A DNA stretch of 13,291 nucleotides from an uncultured Myxococcales bacterium (lineage in GTDB: Bacteria; Myxococcota; UBA4151), in contig CAXGWI010000102.1 of NCBI GenBank assembly GCA_964013405.1, positions 1 through 13,291 of the forward strand. Direction: 5' to 3'. The notes below the pieces were generated by a model. It was not told where the DNA came from. It did no database searches and saw only the letters and a list, made by a program, of their open reading frames with translations. Of the stretch, positions 528 to 13,291 are shown one piece after another. Both the position numbers and the translations under genes were made by a program. Numbering within the stretch: the stretch's first letter is position 1; every line of letters starts with the position of its first letter.

Positions 528-3401
528 TTATTGTTTAATCACAAAGTGGTAATTCCGGATCTTGAGTCTAATTGAACTCATGCCCGGCATGATTTGTCCG
601 ACCGGTAAATCCGTGTACTCGATTTCTTGCGTGGCCTGGTTCAAGCTCCAGCTCTTCACGCCTTTGCTGACGATCTCCACGTCGAAGGTTCGCCCGTTCG
701 ACTTGGGATAGAGCACGGCTTGAATCGGGACCCGACGCAGCTTTCTCGCCACGTAACACTTGGCAAAAACACCCTTGGGCGGCCCGCCCAGGATCGCTCG
801 GTTGCAGCGACCATGGGCTGCAGGGTGTGGAAGGAAGCGCCAGATCGCCTTCACCTTGCACTTTTCGAGCTTGTGACTCGGGTGCCCTTCCATGTCATTG
901 CAGAAGGCGACGACATCCTCTGAAACATCGCTGACGATCCACCGAGCCGTCGGTGACTTCTTGCGCTTGAAGTGAAAGCTCCTGCTGAAGAACAGCCGAT
1001 AGTAGCCACCGAGGAACCACAGGACAAAGGCGATCCCGAGGGCGCAAAGGAGCCAGTAGATGAGTGTTGGCAACCAGCAGGTGAGGAAACTCCCAGCCAC
1101 CGTCGCCGGGACCTCCAGTGTCACCGGCGCACCGTAGGCTTTGCCTTCTTTAGTCACCGGCTGCAGCATCAAGGGCAGCATGTCGCCCGCAGCACTGCAG
1201 CAGCGCCCCGGTGTCAGCAGATAATCAAAAGAGGTCGCACCGGGCTTGAGCTTGAAGCGCTCCGGATGGTCCACATCGGTGCTGCGCACAACCCAGCGGG
1301 CCTCCCGAACCTGCGGGTCATCATCGTTCACCGCCGCTTCGGTCTTGGAATAGAGCTTGAAGTAGAAGGGGGCACCGATGTCCGCTTCCACCTTGACGCT
1401 CCCCGTGGCCGCTTGCCGCAGCTCTGCGGTGATCGGCTCCGGCGCAAAGCTCAGCTTGAACTTCACGTTGCCATCCACTTGGAAGTTGCGGTTACCCGCG
1501 GGGTCTGAGCCATCTTTTAGATGGAGCTGGAGGTTGCCGTCGAAGGCCGGATTCTCCACGTCACCATGGCAGAAGGGCCGGGCCCGAAAGGCGATTTGCA
1601 GATTGGTGGCCTCACCGCCCGGCGGCAGCTTTTTGAAACCGTCTTTGGCGCCCACGAGATTGATGTCGAGGCAGTCGGGCATTTTGTCCAGTTGCTCACC
1701 GGCAACCCCTTTGATGCCGATCAGCGAACTTTCGGTGGATTTGCAGGTCACGCTGACCGTCGTCGTCGTGCCTGCAGGGATGGCGCCCACGGCCAACTGG
1801 GTACCGCCTTCGCTATAGGCACAATCCACCTTCCGATTTTTACACTCAAAGACCCGTAGGTCGCCCAAGTCTAAAGGAATCCGAGAGCCGGGTGCGCCCC
1901 ATACTAGACTCCCCTTCAGTGTATGGTGTCCTTCGGGGCAATTAGGCAGCGAGACGATCCAGCGGTCCCCTTCCGGCGATAACCTTTGGTCTACGGGGAA
2001 CTCTACGCTGTTACCGTTTTCGTCCCGCGTCACGCGCTTGAGTTCCCAGGCGGGTTCGTCGAAGGCATCTTTCATACTCGGGTCGAGAATAGAGATACCA
2101 CCGCCCCCCGCCGACTTCGCCTCCGGACTCAACTCAAGGCACACGGTTTTGCCTGGCTCAAAGGTGAGCTTTTGCGCTGCCGGATCAAGGGGTAGCTCGC
2201 CGCACTGCCCACCCGTGGCGAGATAGATCGGCACATCACCTCGGTCGATATCATATTTGGCTAACTGCAGTGCAGACCAAGTCTTCGCTTTGAGCGAGAT
2301 CTTTACCTTCTCGCCGGGCTCGAAGTTCTTGGGGTCCAGACTAAAGGTCACCACGGCTGAAATGAAGCGCTTGCAGGGGCCCGGATCACACTTCAGCTTG
2401 TTCGCTGCATTTTTGAACCCCGCTCTCTTAAGGCCCCCAAGATACTCATCTTTCAACCCACTATGATCGTACTGAAACACATCGGGCACGACGGTCTTCG
2501 TCGGTTTGATCTCTTGTTGAGACTCCAAGCCCTCCAACTTCAAGCCCAAATCATCCCAAGTCTGTCCAGCCTCGGCCTCGGCCAGCAGCACCATTTGTAC
2601 CGATTCAGCACCGACGAACCCTTCCGCCAAGTCCTGGACGGGGCCGCCACCGGCCCGACCGATCCGTTCATCGGAACCCGGTTTCGGATGCAAATAGGTC
2701 TTCCCGCGGGCGGCAGCGATGACCTGAGCGAAGTAGGGTAGAAGGTCTGCGGAGCTGCCGATCTGCAGGGTATCGCCGCCGCCACGAAATTCTTTGGGAT
2801 AGGTGAAGAGCGGCTTGTCTAACTTCACGCGCCCCTTGAAGGTCACAATGTAGAATGCCAAGCGGTCTCGCCAGGCTTTCCCCCGGCTCCAAGCCCCTGC
2901 ACTCTTCAACCTCTCATTTGACTCACCAACACAGTCACCGTCGGTCATGAAGAGCACAACCGGCTTCACCGAATCATCTTTGGCGTGCTCGTCCAACTGC
3001 TTTGCCAAGACCTTGAGTGCCCGACCGCAGGGGGTGAGAGGCCCGGCATAATGACTAATTGGGCTGGCCGGGCCCAGGTGTTCATCGAGCAAATTTTTCT
3101 GTTTGAGCGTGAAGGGCTTCGCGGGGCGGTGAAAGAGTGCTTTGCCCTGATTGAGGGGGATGACCTGAAGTTTGTCGTCATCGGTCAACAGGCTGGAAAA
3201 TGCCCGCACGGCAACGATCGCAGATCGGTGCGTATCGGCCGCTGGGAACTTCCCTTGCTGAGTGGGAAATGCCATGCTGCCCGAATCATCGATCAACAAA
3301 TAGTATTGGAGCTGTTTCACGTCTTCCGCCGCACCCGCGGTGCCTGGGCAGAAGAGCGCAAGGGCTGCTGCCAGGGAAGAGAGACGCATCGCAGAGGTCA
3401 T
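528..3401 (-). CDS. Exported, single-pass membrane-anchored von Willebrand factor A (vWA) domain protein, 957 aa
   Basis: N-terminal signal peptide (MRLSSLAAALALFCPGTAGA). MIDAS motif LLIDDSGSM (DxSxS at 3276-3290), a conserved T (GPLTP) and LFMTDGD. Long beta-rich, Cys-containing region, a hydrophobic TM helix (WLPTLIYWLLCALGIAFVLWFLGGYY) and a basic ~150-aa C-terminal tail. The start could be Met1 (3401) or Met5 (3389). Confidence 0.88.
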   Translation of the reverse strand: MTSAMRLSSLAAALALFCPGTAGAAEDVKQLQYYLLIDDSGSMAFPTQQGKFPAADTHRSAIVAVRAFSSLLTDDDKLQVIPLNQGKALFHRPAKPFTLKQKNLLDEHLGPASPISHYAGPLTPCGRALKVLAKQLDEHAKDDSVKPVVLFMTDGDCVGESNERLKSAGAWSRGKAWRDRLAFYIVTFKGRVKLDKPLFTYPKEFRGGGDTLQIGSSADLLPYFAQVIAAARGKTYLHPKPGSDERIGRAGGGPVQDLAEGFVGAESVQMVLLAEAEAGQTWDDLGLKLEGLESQQEIKPTKTVVPDVFQYDHSGLKDEYLGGLKRAGFKNAANKLKCDPGPCKRFISAVVTFSLDPKNFEPGEKVKISLKAKTWSALQLAKYDIDRGDVPIYLATGGQCGELPLDPAAQKLTFEPGKTVCLELSPEAKSAGGGGISILDPSMKDAFDEPAWELKRVTRDENGNSVEFPVDQRLSPEGDRWIVSLPNCPEGHHTLKGSLVWGAPGSRIPLDLGDLRVFECKNRKVDCAYSEGGTQLAVGAIPAGTTTTVSVTCKSTESSLIGIKGVAGEQLDKMPDCLDINLVGAKDGFKKLPPGGEATNLQIAFRARPFCHGDVENPAFDGNLQLHLKDGSDPAGNRNFQVDGNVKFKLSFAPEPITAELRQAATGSVKVEADIGAPFYFKLYSKTEAAVNDDDPQVREARWVVRSTDVDHPERFKLKPGATSFDYLLTPGRCCSAAGDMLPLMLQPVTKEGKAYGAPVTLEVPATVAGSFLTCWLPTLIYWLLCALGIAFVLWFLGGYYRLFFSRSFHFKRKKSPTARWIVSDVSEDVVAFCNDMEGHPSHKLEKCKVKAIWRFLPHPAAHGRCNRAILGGPPKGVFAKCYVARKLRRVPIQAVLYPKSNGRTFDVEIVSKGVKSWSLNQATQEIEYTDLPVGQIMPGMSSIRLKIRNYHFVIKQ

Positions 3402-3501: not shown

Positions 3502-4470
3502 TTACGGCAGCTCCTGAGCCCAGCCTTCAAGCAGCGCATCTGGCCTCGGCGCCAAACGACATTGAAGTCCAGCAAGCCCATGAATTTCCTCAATCTCTCT
3601 AAAGATCGTCGGAATATTATTCGGACCACCGAACAGGACGATGCGATCCGCGGGCATGCCCAACTTCATGAGCCCGGGGACAACGTTGTCGAGATCTTTG
3701 AAGGAGGGTTTGTAGTGGCCAGAGTTGTTGGCGATGATCACAGCTTCCAAGTCGCCGGCGGTATCTTTGAGCACCCAAAGTTCGCCGGCCATGAGGATGG
3801 GGTTGTCCTCAAATCGCTCCGCCGTGCCGACGAGCAGAGAGTGTCCTGCCTTGGGTTTGCCGCCCCGGTGCGCCTTGGCGGTCGGGTACACTCGGGTGCT
3901 GTAATCCGGCAGCATCACATAGTCGTAATGGACCCGGTGACCCATGCGCTCGAGGCGGGGCTCATCGAGGGCGATGATGTCATCGAAGCTGCCGCCGCCG
4001 GCCAAAAAGGCCTGCACCCGTTGATCGTACTCCTGTTGCCTCATGTCGGGCTCCAGATCGTCGGCGGTCTTGAAGGTGTTTTTGTAGAGGGTTCTCGCCT
4101 CGGGATAGATGGGCTTGTTGGGCCAACCACCGGAGCCATGGACCAGGCGCCCGAAAGCGCCATCGAAACGGGCGAATTGGGCCCCCGCTTGCCGCAGCAG
4201 TGAGAAGGCTTGATCCTTCAAGGCCAGATAGCCGGCTTCGTCGCGAGCCCGACCCCCGCCGGTTTGAGGGTCGAGGGCATCCAGGGCAGAGATCAGCACT
4301 GCCTCGGCCCGGGCGATCGCCTGGCCCAAATCCTCGTAGACCCCGATCAATGCATCGAGGGTTTCCACCTCACTGCCCGCCACCCGCTGTATTCGCTGTC
4401 CTGCAGCTGCTAACTCGGCCCCTAGCCGGGAGTTGGGTAACCCTCCACCGCTCGTGTTCCCTTGACTCAT
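3502..4470 (-). CDS. Hypothetical protein (~322 aa): helical N-terminus plus C-terminal HS...AGE...NxSGHYxP domain (IQM-core-like, putative enzyme/toxin)
   Basis: The ORF track starts it at 4545. ATG at 4470 has GGAGGG upstream (4479-4484) and is the more likely start. Motifs: YDYVM, AGHSLL (His codon 3841-3843), PILMAGEL and IANNSGHYKP (SGHYKP 3706-3723). Confidence 0.75.
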   Translation of the reverse strand: MSQGNTSGGGLPNSRLGAELAAAGQRIQRVAGSEVETLDALIGVYEDLGQAIARAEAVLISALDALDPQTGGGRARDEAGYLALKDQAFSLLRQAGAQFARFDGAFGRLVHGSGGWPNKPIYPEARTLYKNTFKTADDLEPDMRQQEYDQRVQAFLAGGGSFDDIIALDEPRLERMGHRVHYDYVMLPDYSTRVYPTAKAHRGGKPKAGHSLLVGTAERFEDNPILMAGELWVLKDTAGDLEAVIIANNSGHYKPSFKDLDNVVPGLMKLGMPADRIVLFGGPNNIPTIFREIEEIHGLAGLQCRLAPRPDALLEGWAQELP

Positions 4471-5816: not shown

Positions 5817-5930
5817 GGTTAAAACGCGCACGTTGCTCGGCCACGCCAGTGGGCCGGCAGAGGGGCTAGGCGGCCTCGATCAGAAGCGCGTATAGGCTGC
5901 CTCGACACCTTGAACAGGAGTGGGTTTGTT

Positions 5931-7646
5931 GTGACACCCTGCGCCCTCGACCGATCACTCGTCGCCTCGCTGCCGACGCCCCTCGCACACCACCTGCAAG
6001 AGCTTCTCGACGAAGAGGAACCCCGCAGCGCCGATGAGATTTCAGAGTTTCTCACCGTGTTGCTGGAATACGTCGCCGCCGTTGCGCTCGCCGACTATCT
6101 GGCCTGCGAAACGGCGGAAGCTCAACCGAGCCTTGATGGGTGGCTGGTGACCGCCCTTTCCAGCGGACGGGTCGGCCTTGGCATCTGGCTTCGGTGGACC
6201 CAGTTGGCGGTCAAAAGCACACCGGATCCGGCCCTTGGCTTCTTGCGGGACTATGTTGAGGCCAATGACCTCGACGATCCGAACAGTGATCTCAACTGGC
6301 TCCTGGGCTTCAGAAACGATGTAATGCACGGGGGCTTCGTGGCGCCCTTGCCCAAGATTAAGCAGGCGAAAAAGCGCCTCGAAGCCCTGTTGGCTTCTCT
6401 GCAGCCCCTCTTCGCCTTGAACCCCATGGGCTGCCTCGATTCCCAAGAGAGTTGGCTCAACCTCGCCGGCCTTCAGCCCCATCCCTGTGGGGCCCCCGAA
6501 GACCTGCCCGAGCCTGTCGAAGGCGGCGCGGTCGTCTTGTGTGGCGAGGGCGCATCACCCCGGCTTCGCTTGGATCCACTCTGCAGTTTTCATGAAGAGG
6601 GGCTGGCGCTGCAGCATGACTGGAAGCAACACCATGAGTCCCTGTTTGAGCGCACTCGGCTGGCGGCTTTTTTTACCCGTTACCAGCGCGAGCGAATGGG
6701 CATCATCCCCGATGACAGCTGGCGACAGGCCTGTGCTGCGGAGCGACCGCCAGGGGGCTATCGACGTCGTCCGGAGCGGGAGGCTGACTTGCAGCGGTTG
6801 GCTGAGGAGCCCGGCCTGCAGCTGCGCCTCGTGGGCGCCCCTGGCTCAGGACGAAGCAGCCTAACTCACCACTGGATCGAACAGTATCAGGGACCGGTGG
6901 CCGTGTACCCGGTCCTCGCCAACAGCGTGACGTGTGACCCCGAAGTGCTGCGCCGGTGGGTGGCCCAATCCCTCTCTCGACTCTTACTCGAAGAAGACGC
7001 ACCCGCTGCCGCTTTGAAGGCCGACCCCCGCAAGAAAGACCTGCAGGTTCAAGACCAATGGCAGCAGCGCTTAACCACGGCCTTGGCCCGTTGCCAGCAT
7101 CGGCCGGTCCTGGTGATCGATGACGCCGAAGACCTGGGCTCCGGGATTTATGCCCAACAATCAAAGAGCGGCTGTCTTCGCCTGGCCCGGCAAATGAAGG
7201 TCTCAGTGTTGATGATTCATCGGCCCAGCGGCCGGCCGCCAGCCCAAGGGGATGGGGTCATCGAATTGGGGTGCTGGTCGGTGGATGAACTCGGTGTCTG
7301 GGGTGATGAACCGGATGTGCTCTGGCAGAAGACAGGGGGCTATACGGCCTGGCTTGCTGCCCCGGATCGCACCCAAGCCTGGCTGGTATCAGAGCGGGAT
7401 GCGCGCTGTCGAGATCCGCTCACCGCCCATTGCTTTCATGCATTGAGCGACTCGAGCCTGACGGCGCTAGAGATCGCTGACCGAATCGATCTGGCCGGGC
7501 ACCGGGCCTTCAGCCCAGAGGTGGAGCTACAGCTTCGCAGCCAGCTGGATTGGTTGGAGACAGAGAAGGTCACCGAAGCCGGCAAGGACGTGCTGCGCTA
7601 CCGCCTTCATCCGGCCATGGAGCGAGTCCTGGAGGCCCAGCGATGA
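5931..7646 (+). CDS. HEPN-like N-terminal domain + degenerate STAND-class P-loop NTPase + winged helix (~571 aa)
   Basis: GTG 5931 follows AGGAG (5916-5920); the ORF track uses TTG 5910. RNDVMH (Rx4H) at 6312-6329. Walker A-like GAPGSGRS at 6834-6857, Walker B-like VLVIDDAE at 7107-7130. C-terminal wHTH-like segment LTALEIADRI...RYRLHPAMERVL. Confidence 0.78.
   Translation: MTPCALDRSLVASLPTPLAHHLQELLDEEEPRSADEISEFLTVLLEYVAAVALADYLACETAEAQPSLDGWLVTALSSGRVGLGIWLRWTQLAVKSTPDPALGFLRDYVEANDLDDPNSDLNWLLGFRNDVMHGGFVAPLPKIKQAKKRLEALLASLQPLFALNPMGCLDSQESWLNLAGLQPHPCGAPEDLPEPVEGGAVVLCGEGASPRLRLDPLCSFHEEGLALQHDWKQHHESLFERTRLAAFFTRYQRERMGIIPDDSWRQACAAERPPGGYRRRPEREADLQRLAEEPGLQLRLVGAPGSGRSSLTHHWIEQYQGPVAVYPVLANSVTCDPEVLRRWVAQSLSRLLLEEDAPAAALKADPRKKDLQVQDQWQQRLTTALARCQHRPVLVIDDAEDLGSGIYAQQSKSGCLRLARQMKVSVLMIHRPSGRPPAQGDGVIELGCWSVDELGVWGDEPDVLWQKTGGYTAWLAAPDRTQAWLVSERDARCRDPLTAHCFHALSDSSLTALEIADRIDLAGHRAFSPEVELQLRSQLDWLETEKVTEAGKDVLRYRLHPAMERVLEAQR
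7631..7646 (+). promoter_or_regulatory. Shine-Dalgarno plus ATGA stop/start overlap (translational coupling)
   Basis: GGAGG-cccagcg-ATGA. The TGA at 7644-7646 ends the first STAND gene and the ATG at 7643-7645 starts the second. Confidence 0.75.
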
Positions 7647-10600
7647 GTCGATTGAGCCCCCAGGAAGCGAGCGAACAGGTCCAGGCCCTCCTCTCGAGCG
7701 ACGCCGGGCGAGGGCTGCTCGAGCGTATCGAATCCGGTGAATTACGCGACAACAAGCAGATTCAGTTCGCCGTTGCTGCCACCTTCAACGACCTGCCGAG
7801 CATCCAGGGCCTGGAGCCCTCGGACCAAAAGCAAGTGCTGGGTCGGCTTGGGGGGGCATTGCGCAAAGCGATCCCTGCGCCCCCGAAAGTCCTGGGCCCC
7901 GGGGAGCTCTTGGCGGCGCTCAGCAAAGAACAACGGACCCGCTGGCGGCGAGAGCAAGTCGAAGCCATGGTCACCCCTGTGGCCTATTTAGCCCATCAGG
8001 CCTATCAGGCCTTGGCCTTAGCGTCGGATCACCCCCGCCGCCGGGATTTGGGCTGGGATCTGGTGAATGCGGGGATCACGAGCCTGCGCTACGCCGCGGT
8101 GGTCGCCCTGGCCGAATATGTCGATGAGACAGCGGCGGTTCGCCTTGAAGACCAGCAGCTCAACCGGGCGCTGGTGGAAGCGCTTCAGCATCCAGCGGAT
8201 GGCACCTGGAGCGCCTTGTTGTTTCGCCCCTCGGCCGGCGCGGACCACAGTCTGATCTCGGTTTTAGCCCGACGGGCCCGACGGCGTGTCGAAGCGCTCG
8301 ACTGTCTCCAGGGCGAGCTCAACAGCAAACAAAGTCAGCACCTCTCTGATTGGATCGGCAAAAATGCCCCTGCGGGCTTTCCGGCCAAAGGGCCCTCGGG
8401 CGTTGCGGATCTCATCGATGTGTTTGTTCGCTTTCGCAACGAGTTAGTCCACGGCGCCTACATGCAGCAGCGTCCCGATAGCGTGACGGTCGAGGCTCTG
8501 GGCCAGTTCCTGGACTTGCTCCTAGCCCAGTTGGCTCCCCTCCTCCGCGTCCCGCTCGTGGTCCTTGAAGATGATGGCGATGAATGGTGGGCCTGCGGCT
8601 CGGCCTTGGTGAACATGAAAACCACCGAGGCGCCCCCCAACGCCTTTGCATTCGAAGCCGACCACGTGGGCCGCCCCCTGCTTGCGCTGCCCGGGGGCCC
8701 GCTCTCATTGGCCCCCTGGATCACCGTGGCCGATATGAGCACCGCCACCTATCGAGTCGCCGGCGAGGAGCCGCCCCCCGAAATCGGTCTCTCGGAGGTG
8801 GTTTTCTTCAACCGCTTTGAGGCCTCCGTCCTCCATTACCTCGGCTTTGTGGGGCGGGCCCAATTGCCCCACCACGACCTCGAAGAACGGGCGCGAGCGG
8901 AGTCCGCGTATCAGCGCTTTGCCGCGCATATGGAAGGTCTTCGGGCGGCGGCCGCTCCCCCCAGCGCACGCCGCCAGGATCCGGTCCTTCGCTTCGACGA
9001 GTTGGCCGAGTTCCATGGGCAGAACTTTGTGGGGCGGCAGCAGGCCGCCCAAGCCTTGCTCGATTTCGTGGCCGAGCCCACGGCACCGCTCGGTCTCGTG
9101 ACCGCCAAACCTGGCATGGGCAAATCCGCATTGTTCACCACCCTCTACCGCCAGTTTGGCGAGGTCGGCCAACAAAGCGGGTGGATTTTCCATTTCTCAG
9201 CCCGGGCAGACCAGCGTGACAACGCAGTCCTCGGCCTACGCTCGCTCATCGCCCAAGCTCTTGAGCAGATGGGTTTAAAAAAGCCCAACGAGGCGAAGAT
9301 CAAACCCCCTCTACCCTGGTCTTACAGCGACCTGAAAGATCGGTTCCAAGAGACTCTGGCCGCCCTCGGTGCCCACTATGAAGCCAAGGGACAGCGTGCG
9401 GTGATCTTGATCGACGCGATCGACGAGCAAGAACCTCGCCCTGGGGCGCCGCCAGAGTCGATCTATCGGGCACTGCCCGAAGACCTCCCTCCAGGGGTGG
9501 TGGGTCTCATCAGCGTCCGAATCAACGACGCCCATGAAGCCACGGGCGTCGAGGCCGGTCTTTTGGCCGCGCCTCGAGTGCAGAAGCTCCCGGAACTGGC
9601 CCCTTTACCGGGCCTGAGCCCGGCCGACGTGGAACAGCTCCTTCGAGAGAAGCTCGGCTTGGGCGCCGAGGTGGATGATGGGGTCATCGACCGCATCGAA
9701 ACCGCTGCGAAACGGCCTGATGATGGCACTCTGGATCCATTTTACCTGCGCTTTCTTGCCGATGGCGTGCGGGAAAAGACCATCGACTTAAGCGATGCCG
9801 GCAATGTGCCAGCAGGCCTGGAGAGTTTCTTCGACGCCATTTGGTGGGACCTGGATCCCAGCGACGATTTTTTGCTCCACCGCGTGGTCGGCATGCTGGC
9901 GGAGATGGAAGGCTTTGGCAGCGACGCCTTGTTCGCCGACGCCCTTCACCGGGATGAAGACGGCGTGGCAAAGCGCCGGTTTGGTATCAACAAGCTGCTG
10001 GTGCGCTCCGGGGCCGGCAGCGGCGAGCTGCGCTACGGCCTCTTCCACGACCGTTTTCGCTGGTATGTTCAAAGTCGGTTTCGCCAGGCAGACCGGGCTC
10101 GGGCCCTCCATCTGCCCCTGCTGCACACCTGTGAACGGGGCGTGGACACTGCGGATCATTACAGCGCCCGCTACCACAGCTACCACCTGGCTGCCCTGTG
10201 CGATCACCCGGGCTTGAGCGAGGCAGAACGCCAAGACCACCGGGAGGATTTTTGGCAGCGAATTCGCGCCAGCGAATTTCACCGTCGCAACTTTGCCGCC
10301 CTGGAAGACGAGCACGCGGTCATTGCTGATTTCAAACGGGCCTTTGATGTCTTTCGACCGCGGGTCACCGACGAACCTGCAGTAAAAACAGCCAAAGCCC
10401 AGCGGGCGACGGCGCTGGCGCTGGCCTGCATGGAGCAAGTGGCGGGCGTGGCCAATGAAGCCCGGGCCCGACTCCACGATTATGCACGAGAGGGCGACAC
10501 CGTCCGGGTCATTCAACTGGCCAACCGCGCGGGTGGAACGGCCCTGAACTGGATGACCCTGCTGCGAGCTGCAGCCACCATGGTATCGGTGCAACTGGAC

Positions 10601-10792
10601 CCCTCGCCCTTGTTCGAGGCGATCGAGGCGAGCCGAGCACCGAGTTTGCGCCCCAGCGACCAGGAACCGCTCGCCCAGTTGCTTGCGGCGGCCGAGGCGC
10701 CAGAAGCCCTGCGTGACTATGTCAGCAGCTGCGGTGAAGCCGACCCGCCACCCGTCCCAGCAGCAGCGGCAGAAACGGAAGCAAAGCCATGA
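7643..10792 (+). CDS. HEPN-like domain + NACHT-type STAND NTPase + wHTH/helical domains (~1049 aa)
   Basis: ATG 7643 overlaps the upstream stop (ATGA) and has GGAGG at 7631-7635. RNELVH at 8435-8452. FVGR motif, Walker A AKPGMGKS (9104-9127), WIFHFS strand and NACHT-style Walker B VILIDAIDE (9401-9427). Also PFYL, wHTH end YGLFHDRFRWYV and helical YSARYHSYHLA. Confidence 0.85.
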   Translation: MSRLSPQEASEQVQALLSSDAGRGLLERIESGELRDNKQIQFAVAATFNDLPSIQGLEPSDQKQVLGRLGGALRKAIPAPPKVLGPGELLAALSKEQRTRWRREQVEAMVTPVAYLAHQAYQALALASDHPRRRDLGWDLVNAGITSLRYAAVVALAEYVDETAAVRLEDQQLNRALVEALQHPADGTWSALLFRPSAGADHSLISVLARRARRRVEALDCLQGELNSKQSQHLSDWIGKNAPAGFPAKGPSGVADLIDVFVRFRNELVHGAYMQQRPDSVTVEALGQFLDLLLAQLAPLLRVPLVVLEDDGDEWWACGSALVNMKTTEAPPNAFAFEADHVGRPLLALPGGPLSLAPWITVADMSTATYRVAGEEPPPEIGLSEVVFFNRFEASVLHYLGFVGRAQLPHHDLEERARAESAYQRFAAHMEGLRAAAAPPSARRQDPVLRFDELAEFHGQNFVGRQQAAQALLDFVAEPTAPLGLVTAKPGMGKSALFTTLYRQFGEVGQQSGWIFHFSARADQRDNAVLGLRSLIAQALEQMGLKKPNEAKIKPPLPWSYSDLKDRFQETLAALGAHYEAKGQRAVILIDAIDEQEPRPGAPPESIYRALPEDLPPGVVGLISVRINDAHEATGVEAGLLAAPRVQKLPELAPLPGLSPADVEQLLREKLGLGAEVDDGVIDRIETAAKRPDDGTLDPFYLRFLADGVREKTIDLSDAGNVPAGLESFFDAIWWDLDPSDDFLLHRVVGMLAEMEGFGSDALFADALHRDEDGVAKRRFGINKLLVRSGAGSGELRYGLFHDRFRWYVQSRFRQADRARALHLPLLHTCERGVDTADHYSARYHSYHLAALCDHPGLSEAERQDHREDFWQRIRASEFHRRNFAALEDEHAVIADFKRAFDVFRPRVTDEPAVKTAKAQRATALALACMEQVAGVANEARARLHDYAREGDTVRVIQLANRAGGTALNWMTLLRAAATMVSVQLDPSPLFEAIEASRAPSLRPSDQEPLAQLLAAAEAPEALRDYVSSCGEADPPPVPAAAAETEAKP
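10789..10792 (+). promoter_or_regulatory. ATGA stop/start overlap coupling the NACHT gene to the LRR gene
   Basis: gcaaagccATGAgt: TGA 10790-10792 is the STAND stop and ATG 10789-10791 opens the LRR frame. Only a weak SD (GGA) lies upstream. Confidence 0.7.
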
Positions 10793-13291
10793 GTTCGGGG
10801 GAAGAAAAGAAGCTCTTTCAAGTCACGAAAGACCAAGTCGAAGGGATTCGGGAGGCGATGGCGGGTTGTGACGGTGAGTGGCAAATCGCCATCCGAACAG
10901 GTCCCGACTGGAACGTCAAACAGGCTCCCGTGAAGGAAGACTTGGATTGGAATACATCGGAGATTGTGAAGACGGTGACATGCCCTTCAGGGTGGTTACA
11001 GGTGATGGCCTTCACCGCATCTTGGAGCAAAATGGCGTTGCCGGCCCGTCGGGGGTCGACCACCAAAGCACGTTGCCCCGTACCGATGGGGCTCAACTGG
11101 CCGACGATCAAAGACGAAGGTGATGGGGAGGAGACAGCTCGCGAGGGCTATGAGCTGAGGATGCGGGTGACCGGCAAGGACACCACAAAACTAGGAGACC
11201 TGCCCGCGGCTTTCGCGGCACTCCCTGCTCTCGGCGACCTGAGGATCTTCGGCTGCAAAGCCCTCACGGACATCTCTGGCCTTGAAGGACTCACAAATCT
11301 CACGAATCTAAGTCTCCGTAATTGCGGGTCCCTCTCGGACCTCTCGGGCGCTGAAGGGCTGACAAGCCTCGAGACCTTGGACCTCGCAGGCTGCCAGTCT
11401 GTCACGGACCTCTCGGGAATCAAAGGACTCACAAATCTCACGACCCTCAACCTCGGCTGGGGGGGGAAATCCCGCACGGACGCCTCGGGCATCGAAGGGC
11501 TCACAAGCCTTGAAACCTTGAGCCTAGAGTCGTGTCGCTCCCTCACAAACGTCTCTGGCCTTGGAGGACTCACCAGCCTCAAAACCTTGGACCTCAAGAA
11601 TTGCAAATCCCTCACGGACGTCTCTGGCCTTGAAGGACTCACTCAATTGGAGCGCTTGAACCTTAAAAACTGTGAAGCCCTCACAAACGTCTCTGGCCTT
11701 GGAGGACTCACAAGCCTCAAAACCTTGGACCTCGAGAATTGCAAATCCCTCACGGACGTCTCTGGCCTTGAAGGACTCACTCAATTGGAGCGCTTGAACC
11801 TTAGAACCTGTGAAGCCCTCACAAACCTATCTGGCCTAGAAACACTCACCAGCCTCAAGAGCTTGAACCTCAAGGGTTGCAAATCCATTACCCACTTCCC
11901 TGACCTCGCAGGACTGACAGACCTCGAAACAATCGATCTACAATGGTGCGAAGCCCTCGAGGATATCTCTGGCTTTGAAGGACTCACAAGCCTTGAAACC
12001 TTGAACCTCTGTTGGTGCAACTCCATCACGAACATCTCACCACTCGAAGGACTCACTCAACTCACAAACCTGGACCTCAATACCTGCGCATCCCTCACAG
12101 ACATCACACCACTCATAGGGCTCACTCAAATCACAAACCTGGACCTCAGATCGTGCAATTCCCTCACAAATCTATCTGGTCTTGAAGGGCTCACTCAAAT
12201 CACGAGCCTGGAACTCACTTGGTGCGAATCCCTCACGGACCTCTCGGGAATCAAAGGACTCAATCAACTCATGAGCCTGGAACTCTCCTTCTGCAGCTCC
12301 CTCACGGACCTCTCGGGGCTCGAAGGACTCACGAAACTCACGAGCATCGACCTCATGGACTGCACATCCATCACCGACATCACAGCACTCAAAGGACTCA
12401 GTCAACTCACGAGCCTGGACCTCCGTAAGTGCAGTTCCCTCACGGATCTCACAGCACTTAAAGACCTCGACGCATTAGAATATCTCAACATCACAGGCTG
12501 CAACGAACTCAATGAACCACATCTTTGGTGGCCACTCGAGCAACTACCCAGGCTTCAGCAACTCAAGAGCAACCTCCCCGCTTGGTTCGCCACAAGGACC
12601 CTCGCCCGAGCAGCCATCGGTCGCTCAGATACAGAAGCAGCAGCGGAAAATATCGAAGACTGGCTAGAGACGGCCAACGGCCGTCCTGAAGCAGAAGGAT
12701 TGCTGGCCGCAGTGGGCGGCTGCGCAGCACTCCTGGCACCGGAGGAGACTGGGCTGAGCGCCCTGCAGCAATGCCTCAAACTGGCTCGGCTCCACGATGC
12801 GAAGGACGTCGCCGGTCTTTACAAAGCCGCACTGCCTCTGGCTGCCCACGATGCCGTCGCTGCCGAGCTGGAAACCTCCGTTCAGCAGACCGACTTTTTG
12901 ATGCCTCCGGAATCCCTCGCTGGCTTGGCAACTCAACTCCACTTAGCTGACCATGACTGGGCACAGCCCCTGGCGGCGGTGGTCTTGGAACGCAGCGTCA
13001 CCGCTGTGCTTGAGGTCATGGCAGCACAGGAGCCCCCCGAGTGGACCGCTCGAACCGCTGCCACTTTGGTGACCGATCTCGCCGATCATCAAGACGCGCT
13101 CATCCCTGAGGGCTTTCCTTTGAGCGCCCAAACCCAAAGCACCGTTCTGGAGCGGCTTGGCGCCCTCGCTGACTGGGGCGGCGCTGAGGACAGCGCCGTG
13201 CATCTCTTCGCCTTGGTGGCCCTGCGCCACGGGGTTGAGGAAGAAGCCGAGACGGTTCAATCCCTCTATGATGCCCTGGAGTCCTTAGCGC
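10789..13291 (+). CDS. Leucine-rich repeat protein (>834 aa): ~147-aa N-terminal region, ~19 Cys-containing LRRs, C-terminal alpha-helical domain; runs off the right edge
   Basis: Not in the ORF track. ATG 10789 overlaps the STAND stop (ATGA) and frame +1 has no stop to the window end (MSSGEEKKLFQVTKDQVEG...LGDLRIFGCKALTDISGLEGLTN...SLYDALESLA). No signal peptide. Confidence 0.92.
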   Translation, partial: MSSGEEKKLFQVTKDQVEGIREAMAGCDGEWQIAIRTGPDWNVKQAPVKEDLDWNTSEIVKTVTCPSGWLQVMAFTASWSKMALPARRGSTTKARCPVPMGLNWPTIKDEGDGEETAREGYELRMRVTGKDTTKLGDLPAAFAALPALGDLRIFGCKALTDISGLEGLTNLTNLSLRNCGSLSDLSGAEGLTSLETLDLAGCQSVTDLSGIKGLTNLTTLNLGWGGKSRTDASGIEGLTSLETLSLESCRSLTNVSGLGGLTSLKTLDLKNCKSLTDVSGLEGLTQLERLNLKNCEALTNVSGLGGLTSLKTLDLENCKSLTDVSGLEGLTQLERLNLRTCEALTNLSGLETLTSLKSLNLKGCKSITHFPDLAGLTDLETIDLQWCEALEDISGFEGLTSLETLNLCWCNSITNISPLEGLTQLTNLDLNTCASLTDITPLIGLTQITNLDLRSCNSLTNLSGLEGLTQITSLELTWCESLTDLSGIKGLNQLMSLELSFCSSLTDLSGLEGLTKLTSIDLMDCTSITDITALKGLSQLTSLDLRKCSSLTDLTALKDLDALEYLNITGCNELNEPHLWWPLEQLPRLQQLKSNLPAWFATRTLARAAIGRSDTEAAAENIEDWLETANGRPEAEGLLAAVGGCAALLAPEETGLSALQQCLKLARLHDAKDVAGLYKAALPLAAHDAVAAELETSVQQTDFLMPPESLAGLATQLHLADHDWAQPLAAVVLERSVTAVLEVMAAQEPPEWTARTAATLVTDLADHQDALIPEGFPLSAQTQSTVLERLGALADWGGAEDSAVHLFALVALRHGVEEEAETVQSLYDALESLA
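11230..12552 (+). repeat. Intragenic LRR array: 18 regular units of 69 bp (one of 72 bp) plus a degenerate 19th, consensus LxxLxLxxCxxLTDxSGLEGLTx
   Basis: Units start at 11230, 11299, 11368, 11437 (24 aa), 11509, 11578, 11647, 11716, 11785, 11854, 11923, 11992, 12061, 12130, 12199, 12268, 12337, 12406 and 12475. The DNA motifs ccctcac and gaaggactcac recur. Confidence 0.95.
11541..11816 (+). repeat. Near-perfect 138-bp tandem duplication (two-LRR unit)
   Basis: 11541-11678 and 11679-11816 differ at 4 of 138 positions by manual alignment. A further partial copy (cctcacaaac) starts at 11817. Confidence 0.93.

Follow-up and report, generated by a model that had tools for sequence, protein, structure and literature searches.

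We analysed contig CAXGWI010000102.1 (assembly GCA_964013405.1), part of the 3.9-Mb genome of an uncultured Myxococcales bacterium. The whole contig, 13,291 bases, is referred to here as the window. It carries three co-oriented open reading frames (ORFs) on the forward strand: gene A (5931–7646, 571 amino acids; GTG start, with TTG at 5910 as a possible alternative), gene B (7643–10792, 1049 amino acids) and gene C (10789–13291, at least 834 amino acids, cut by the contig end). An earlier reading of this DNA (the original prediction) had proposed a split, paired NLR-like immune operon, and the two ATGA overlaps that it described, joining A to B and B to C, are present in the sequence. A and B occur once each in the genome, and none of the three proteins has a clear membrane helix (19-residue hydrophobicity maxima of 1.7, 1.9 and 1.6). 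Our preferred interpretation, to which we assign a probability of roughly 60%, is that A and B form the sensor-less HEPN-fold/STAND core of a split NLR-type immune receptor, with the half that binds the ligand supplied in trans, here by C. It builds on the observed domain architecture, the adjacency of the genes, the point at which the receptor chain is split, genome-wide co-occurrence and the strain variation of C.

Domain architecture of A, B and C

Gene A encodes a HEPN-like helical domain, a small beta subdomain and a decayed STAND module of nucleotide-binding domain (NBD), helical domain 1 (HD1) and winged helix, where the chain ends. The predicted model is confident (predicted local distance difference test score, pLDDT, 89.9). 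Residues 269–568 superimpose on the archaeal STAND-like ATPase 2fna (Z 16.4, root-mean-square deviation (rmsd) 4.4, 274 residues aligned), and A also matches CED-4 (Z 14.3); the NBD–HD1–winged-helix module spans approximately residues 260–571. A has the fold of a STAND protein and lacks the conserved Walker A lysine and Walker B acids; its Walker A (6834–6857, +) has arginine in place of lysine. In an alignment of 60 A-family members, mostly 13–47% identical to A (alignment A5), the HEPN residues are kept while the Walker residues drift. The R-N-x3-H motif (R128–H133, 6312–6329, +) is retained with R128 in 59, N129 in 58 and H133 in all 60 rows. The Walker A position is Lys in 20/60, Arg in 12/60 and another residue in the remainder, and the first Walker B Asp is present in 32/60. 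Because the R-N-x3-H motif is kept and the lysine survives in so few rows, we infer that A is a pseudo-NTPase in which a nuclease-type site is conserved. When 1.84 billion representatives were searched with a profile, 71 A-like proteins were retrieved at E ≤ 1e-30. Since the full-length members are nearly all 510–630 amino acids long and end at the winged helix, the A family appears never to carry a sensor. A group of more distant A-like proteins (P0108–P0163, 510–585 amino acids) has the Walker A lysine and no R-N-x3-H motif; they may belong to sister systems in which the roles are reversed.

Gene B encodes an N-terminal helical cap, a putative HEPN-fold domain (residues 94–302), a NACHT/NPHP3-like STAND module (454–812) and an HD2/arm-like extension (approximately 812–1030; HD2, helical domain 2). 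Its predicted model is moderate (pLDDT 64). The R-N-x3-H motif (R265–H270, 8435–8452, +) and the AxxGxGKS Walker A (9104–9127, +) are invariant in alignment A3 (R265, N266, H270 and K494 each 15/15), as are Walker B residues D591, D594 and E595 and the winged-helix His802 downstream (each 15/15). With intact Walker A and B motifs ahead of HD1 and the winged helix, B qualifies as a NACHT-like STAND protein, and it exceeds the Pfam cut-offs for both NACHT and NPHP3_N. The degenerate STAND of A and the intact one of B are thus as the original prediction had them. Residues 94–302 matched the HEPN region of Roquin (4txa) with Z 9.7, rmsd 3.2 and 132 residues aligned, a middling Z for a helical bundle. 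The model of residues 454–935 matched Apaf-1 (1z6t, 121–551), from NBD to HD2 (Z 10.6, rmsd 12.2, 304 aligned), and the model also fold-matches CED-4 and Avs3. Both the A and the B family carry R-x4-6-H at a helix end, the criterion for HEPN RNases; alignment of the HEPN motif to its counterpart in a Csx1 structure reached no better than E 0.23. A search of the ESM Atlas returned only unnamed or NPHP3_N-type clusters.

A and B had also been described as paralogues, each with an RNxxxH motif ahead of STAND and winged helix. Profile–profile comparison bears this out for both the N-domain (98.4%, E 4e-15) and the STAND module (95.5%, E 1.5e-8); the relationship is distant, and BLASTP of A against B did not detect it (E 0.10). 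B exists in a long form (eight rows, 1029–1054 amino acids) and a short form (seven rows, 712–778 amino acids), all seven short rows ending about 10–20 residues past the winged-helix His. The HD2/arm-like extension (10076–10732, +) is confined to the long form, the short one ending just before it. The claim that neither A nor B has a terminal repeat array holds for both forms of B, with the correction that the B of the window continues past the winged helix. Neither the free-HD2 profile described below (hhalign 0.2% and 1.1%) nor the C-terminal domain (CTD) of C gave a significant sequence match to the extension.

C consists, in order, of an N-domain, an inverted piece of rho, 19 leucine-rich repeats (LRRs) and a helical CTD. 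The unit count of the original prediction was right; its description of C as an LRR protein left out the other three parts. The conserved N-domain of about 45 residues (10789–10956, +) is 51% identical over 37 residues to an ORF at locus L002 (E 1e-9). The rho fragment (10972–11109, −) matches rho of the host on contig C55 in 111/138 bases (E 6e-30) and is read through in frame on the forward strand as codons ~62–107 of C. It corresponds to the Walker A region, is 80% identical and decays in the rho frame. The LRR array (11230–12564, +; residues 148–592) has 19 units of 23 residues (17 pattern matches, two of which hold two units) and includes a recent 138-bp duplication (91% match). The CTD begins at 12565 and is cut at 13291 (+). 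It has no Pfam family, is 27% identical over 267 residues to a gene beside the long B of L003 (E 7e-24), defines the family of C and measures about 430 residues in full-length relatives. The remainder of this CTD is probably encoded at the beginning of another contig of this genome, C183, as judged by homology. The gene that follows the presumed 3′ end of C there (L115:566–1342, +) encodes a protein with a weak CBS match and an R-N-x3-H-like motif near its N-terminus. A homologue search with residues 575–834 of C among proteins of 458–1460 amino acids returned none. Internalin and XopL were rejected as identities for C; their matches were far below cut-off, with the LRRs alone behind them. The genome of the window (G000) has two other stand-alone LRR genes (contigs C41:12344–13498 and C60:4029–6077) that share an N-terminal helical motif with each other and have no CTD.

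The A–B pair and its partner genes

A lies directly 5′ of B in all 16 distinct loci that have DNA after A (the window, L002–L007, L009–L011, L016, L035, L043, L062, L065 and L066). This count leaves out four loci ending inside A, L015, which is identical to the window, and L008, L012, L013 and L014, in which the side of A is missing. A rarity of repeat proteins beside homologues of the pair was named in the original prediction as evidence against it. Ten loci show the full pair and the next gene, and in nine of them a repeat, HD2 or C-family gene is adjacent. The A family is rare: it is found in 6/401 genomes of the phylum of G061 and 9/182 of its class, in 3/201, 1/18 and 1/37 genomes of further sets and in 0/300 further genomes from the phylum to which the window belongs. 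Its distribution is patchy; most relatives that carry a name are Myxococcota, besides Litoricola and a cluster labelled Dehalococcoidales. Searches of plasmids and of viral contigs with A gave no match, and a metagenome scan gave at least two loci. Large membrane-like genes beside L002 and L007 were considered as a shared component and rejected, as they are not homologous to each other. Three kilobases from the pair at L005 lies a full-length HEPN-like STAND gene with a helical tail (L005:855–5093, −; 1412 amino acids), a possible unsplit relative.

In a tree of A proteins, six rows of the long-B/C type separate from 14 others with support 100/100, and the type of partner tracks the length of B. 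Within the long-B clade a C-family gene is adjacent in all four loci with a visible flank (the window, L002, L003 and L009). At L002 the ORF that matches the N-domain of C starts 80 bp after long B; at L003 a convergent CTD gene stands beside long B; at L009 the 3′ end of a CTD gene immediately precedes A. The CTD was found only in G061, G063 and G677, and in 0/173 and 0/198 A-negative genomes. Another locus, L039:6294–12596 (−), is an operon of an LRR-CTD gene, a single 881-residue HEPN-like STAND gene with a long-B-like tail and a free HD2-TPR gene; it may join the contig of L005 as one large G063 locus. The LRR fragments on L005 and L039 have no exact end overlap of at least 15 bases. As they are possibly one gene, the two were not counted as independent loci.

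Short-B genes neighbour WD40 or TPR proteins that open with a common helical motif. A profile of these N-termini (A8) matches nine full-length STAND proteins, always C-terminal to both the Walker A and the STAND match and in 7/9 no more than 60 residues after the winged-helix motif, and one free gene has a weak score to the Apaf-1 helical domain (E 5e-4). From the position of these matches the free genes appear to start at HD2, exactly where short B stops. The survey of neighbourhoods suggested by the original prediction gave a constant pair whose partner changes among LRR, TPR and WD40 proteins, following the two clades and the split point. One such free HD2-TPR gene, located ahead of A in the single-cell genome of a Litoricola (L007:6295–8007, +), is interrupted by a stop codon within HD2; an intact relative lies 7 kb after B in a sister genome (L013:7701–9758).

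Genes that start with HD2 occur in 10/12 A-positive versus 2/371 A-negative genomes overall, at one to six per genome and often unlinked to the pair. In one class of 182 genomes (E ≤ 1e-6) the figures are 7/9 A-positive versus 1/173 A-negative, and 5/7 A-positive when two genomes that supplied training rows are removed; five further A-negative matches in this class are in cis and one match had no locus. The A-positive genomes that miss a free HD2 gene are G549, which has a weaker match, and G550, which belongs to the long-B clade. A second set of 201 genomes gave 3/3 A-positive (G608 lies outside the training set) versus 1/198 others, the last being doubtful and partial. Fisher tests of the co-occurrence returned P values of 2e-10 and 3e-6, which are overstated because the genomes include kin that are not independent (eight clusters at 40% identity) and are incomplete. 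Genomes whose pair lacks a neighbouring sensor have such genes elsewhere; unlinked copies were inspected on other contigs of G548 (six), G547 (three), G321 (two) and G567 (four). Scanning nine unlinked HD2 genes revealed clear TPR or WD40 repeats in six, weak ones in one and none in two. The genome of the window has no free HD2 gene, as expected if its long B keeps its own HD2.

Contigs from marine metagenome runs, which report presence only, showed that C alleles differ between near-identical strains. A contig of run X1 spans 7237–10871 of the window with 63 differences in 3635 positions (1.7%) and then departs from it; run X2 has the same loose end. Translated by hand in the frame of C, the departing sequence keeps 6/11 residues, and on this ground the variant is another member of the C family. 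Run X10 holds a third variant, which diverges after 10835 and keeps 5/10 residues, on a contig that stops short of B. The stretch 10800–10871 is common to the strain variants, and divergence starts there. In X1, X2 and X6 a contig enters C at 10800 from the stop codon of another upstream ORF and an in-frame start, an arrangement compatible with either a tandem array or a second copy. The window's own B–C junction (10736–10943) is bridged without a difference by a contig of run X8, possibly the source sample. Joints within the LRR array may be artefacts of repeat collapse and were rejected as variation. Together with the change of partner types between clades, this variation gives the original prediction partial support, as regards a separately encoded and exchangeable third gene.

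Upstream of A the window contains a Bax inhibitor-1 family gene (PF01027; 5139–5816, +) immediately 5′, which was not seen adjoining the pair elsewhere, and a 322-residue protein gene (3502–4470, −) with no Pfam family and an N-S-G-H-Y/F-K-P motif. A 50%-identical homologue of the latter lies directly 3′ of a CTD gene in G061 (L072:1394–2350, +), and this protein may be an occasional extra component or effector. Further upstream, a tubulin-like gene (PF13809; 2–493, −), cut by the contig start, lies behind a gene for a 957-residue protein (528–3401, −) that has a signal-like N-terminus, a DxSxS motif resembling vWA by eye and no Pfam match; the two are possibly a vWA–tubulin system. No sigma-70-like promoter was found in the window, and terminator-like matches numbered 10 (5.5 ± 2.8 in shuffles). 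The tetranucleotide usage of the contig is ordinary (rank 40 of 65), with the A–B stretch between the 75th and 95th percentile, and therefore gives no indication of misbinning.

Comparison with described systems

In plant paired and networked NLRs (sensor/helper pairs, NRC) and in NAIP/NLRC4, the sensors are themselves NLRs with their own nucleotide-binding domain. The present system resembles these networks in that several sensors would feed one executor through hetero-oligomers, and differs in that its putative sensors have no nucleotide-binding domain.

Statements about the papers cited in this text refer to the parts of them that we consulted. The nSTAND2 systems (Kaur et al. 2021, PMC8195603) are mobile two-gene operons of an active and an eroded STAND, predicted to form a hetero-ring, with HEPN among the effectors. 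Two adjacent STAND genes, one of them eroded, the plan that nSTAND2 combines with a HEPN or GT4 effector, are likewise present in 16/16 of our loci. However, a search of the window's genome for the nSTAND2 family PF20702 gave nothing at E ≤ 1, and B is NACHT/NPHP3_N-like; PF20702 is absent from the best 25 of 40 families for the 60 A proteins and from the families of the 15 B proteins. Here both genes bear the HEPN motif, and repeat sensors in trans are not described for nSTAND2 in the part of PMC8195603 consulted.

Avs and bNACHT proteins share with our system an N-terminal effector, a STAND switch and sensors of the TPR, WD40 and LRR types (PMC13581612; 10.1101/2022.07.19.500537). Avs1–21 and bNACHT are mostly single genes with the sensor in the same chain, whereas here the sensor is separate, the chain is cut at the border of winged-helix domain (WHD) and HD2 or after a short extension, the core comprises two genes and a genome may hold several sensors. 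The best curated Avs model, Avs1b, scored 17.3 bits against a cut-off of 1500, and the PADLOC Avs1b model scored 25 bits, on the STAND part only. With a sensor encoded apart from the STAND chain and scores short of every curated model, the pair falls outside Avs/bNACHT in our view. The 2026 survey PMC13581612 clustered only in-cis C-terminal regions of at least 400 amino acids and mentions split Avs7/Dsr1 in its methods; A–B pairs presumably fall outside its sensor set because of that restriction. According to 10.1101/2022.07.19.500537, bNACHT16 has C-terminal LRRs in cis and bNACHT genes are rarely in operons. The contrast that the original prediction drew between bacterial receptors and the LRR and paired receptors of plants and animals was slightly too strong, given the LRRs of bNACHT16 and the active-plus-inactive HEPN operons of nSTAND2 (PMC8195603).

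The iSTAND ternary systems with MoxR-vWA cores (PMC7159879) are likewise conflict systems of several genes that include an inactive STAND. They differ from ours in that there is no MoxR match among the neighbours scanned (part of those listed) and the vWA-like gene of the window has no counterpart in the related loci listed. A literature search did not find the system, although its proteins might appear in tables that accompany PMC13581612, PMC8195603 or the bNACHT preprint. The original prediction did not recognise the architecture as a named defence system; the libraries and literature that we searched gave no match either, and the system is likely undescribed.

Candidate mechanism, alternatives and implications

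The receptor logic NBD–HD1–WHD–HD2–repeat is established for Apaf-1 and NLRs, with NLRC4 and Avs as further analogues, and HEPN RNases work as dimers with a dimeric active site. The docking and nucleotide steps of our model are modelled on the former and the RNase step on the latter. We suggest that a free module would dock on B and complete an NBD–HD1–WHD–HD2–repeat receptor. Docking would occur through the module's own HD2 in the sister clade and probably on the helical extension of B in the clade of the window. Once the repeats had bound an invader molecule, B would be able to replace its ADP with ATP, and a mixed ring would form from B and A, the latter dead as an NTPase. The two different HEPN domains could then pair, each contributing R-x4-H to a composite RNase site, and RNA cleavage would lead to growth arrest or death. 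One core could serve several sensors, which might be gained, lost and shuffled independently. The weakest step is the proposed contact between C and long B, because C has no HD2 and its link to B is genomic only. Complex prediction of long B (P0009, residues 470–1022) with the CTD of a neighbouring gene scored 0.00 in two runs, in which the controls were also unfolded, so that the result carries no evidential weight. An anti-phage role is suggested by the architecture, the patchy distribution and the diversification of the sensors. A broader and more tentative proposal, whose chances we put a little short of even, is a modular NLR network in which one HEPN-STAND core is served genome-wide by NTPase-less heads (HD2+TPR, HD2+WD40 and LRR+CTD), joined at the WHD/HD2 border and swappable between strains. 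This proposal includes the window as its LRR branch, with alleles exchanged at a shared 5′ stretch.

Several observations weigh against our interpretation. All Pfam HEPN matches are sub-threshold (RiboL-PSP in 3/60 A proteins and Swt1-like in 2/15 B proteins, both below cut-off), and the extension of B is HD2-like by predicted structure alone. The window holds no known defence gene, PADLOC reports only weak STAND-like matches on the contig, none to a described system (a check that the original prediction had proposed), and over the 60 A proteins it gave no match better than 4e-5. Locus L010 is fully visible and has no adjacent partner. One lineage (G547, G548, G549 and G321) has the pair following a conserved radical-SAM gene, also with no adjacent sensor, a context that looks like a vertical housekeeping setting. 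Free HD2 genes occur in G192 (clear) and G662 (doubtful), in which no pair was found. Beyond the window, the LRRs run on into a CTD in two genes, both cut by contig ends, at L003 and L039, and the CTD profiles are shallow and were partly trained on positives, the independent finds being G677 and two extra G061 copies. The genomes are incomplete, mutually related metagenome-assembled genomes, whose 20 A proteins fall into eight clusters at 40% identity, and the large searches scored only 7–21 candidates per genome.

The missing partner at L010 would be explained if A and B were an autonomous, nSTAND2-like hetero-ring with the dead STAND of A as receptor, for example of nucleic acid, and the repeat genes were mere co-residents of a conflict island. 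Inactive STANDs have been proposed as nucleic-acid receptors (Kaur 2021, PMC8195603), and the terminal winged helix of A resembles DNA-binding ArsR-type domains. We regard this as unlikely, since the free genes begin with the very domain that is absent from short B, follow the pair genome-wide even when unlinked, and differ in type with the length of B. The receptor might instead be split as we propose with A acting as a brake that keeps B inactive until the sensor frees it, comparable to plant paired NLRs or toxin–antitoxin pairs. The decayed NTPase motifs of A and its constant first position, translationally coupled to B, suit such an arrangement; a pure inhibitor would have no need of the HEPN R, N and H, which A retains in 58–60 of 60 rows down to 13% identity, and we give the brake a rather low probability.

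A split STAND switch of this kind could also serve prey or kin recognition, programmed death or RNA regulation, the HEPN fold binding RNA uncut, as in Roquin. The HEPN region of Roquin is the best structural match of the N-domain of B, the NPHP3/NACHT-like neighbourhood of B includes non-immune STANDs (PMC13581612), the named relatives are mostly Myxococcota, and no known defence neighbours were seen. Such a function appears improbable to us given the invariant, catalytic-type R-N-x3-H, the patchy spread over Myxococcota, Litoricola and the Dehalococcoidales-labelled cluster, and repeat partners that diversify and vary between strains. It is least credible that C is peculiar to the window, either because an LRR gene with no relation to the pair came to lie next to it or because the B–C junction is an assembly chimera. 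Contigs of three runs do put the window's variant of C behind another upstream ORF, and a rho piece is inserted in C. The X8 contig nevertheless bridges the junction without a difference, though perhaps from the source sample, and the long-B pairs of L002, L003 and L009 also have C-family genes next to them, which largely refutes a chance association.

If our interpretation is true, NLR specificity would be encodable as free cassettes through a natural split at the autoinhibitory WHD/HD2 border, with up to six different heads per core, and bacteria would gain a many-sensor, one-executor design so far known from plants and mammals. HD2-mediated autoinhibition would become approachable by mixing purified parts, and a programmable kill switch for laboratory strains may be possible. 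Surveys of in-cis sensors would then miss a whole class of receptors, and orphan TPR and WD40 genes of Myxococcota would gain a role.

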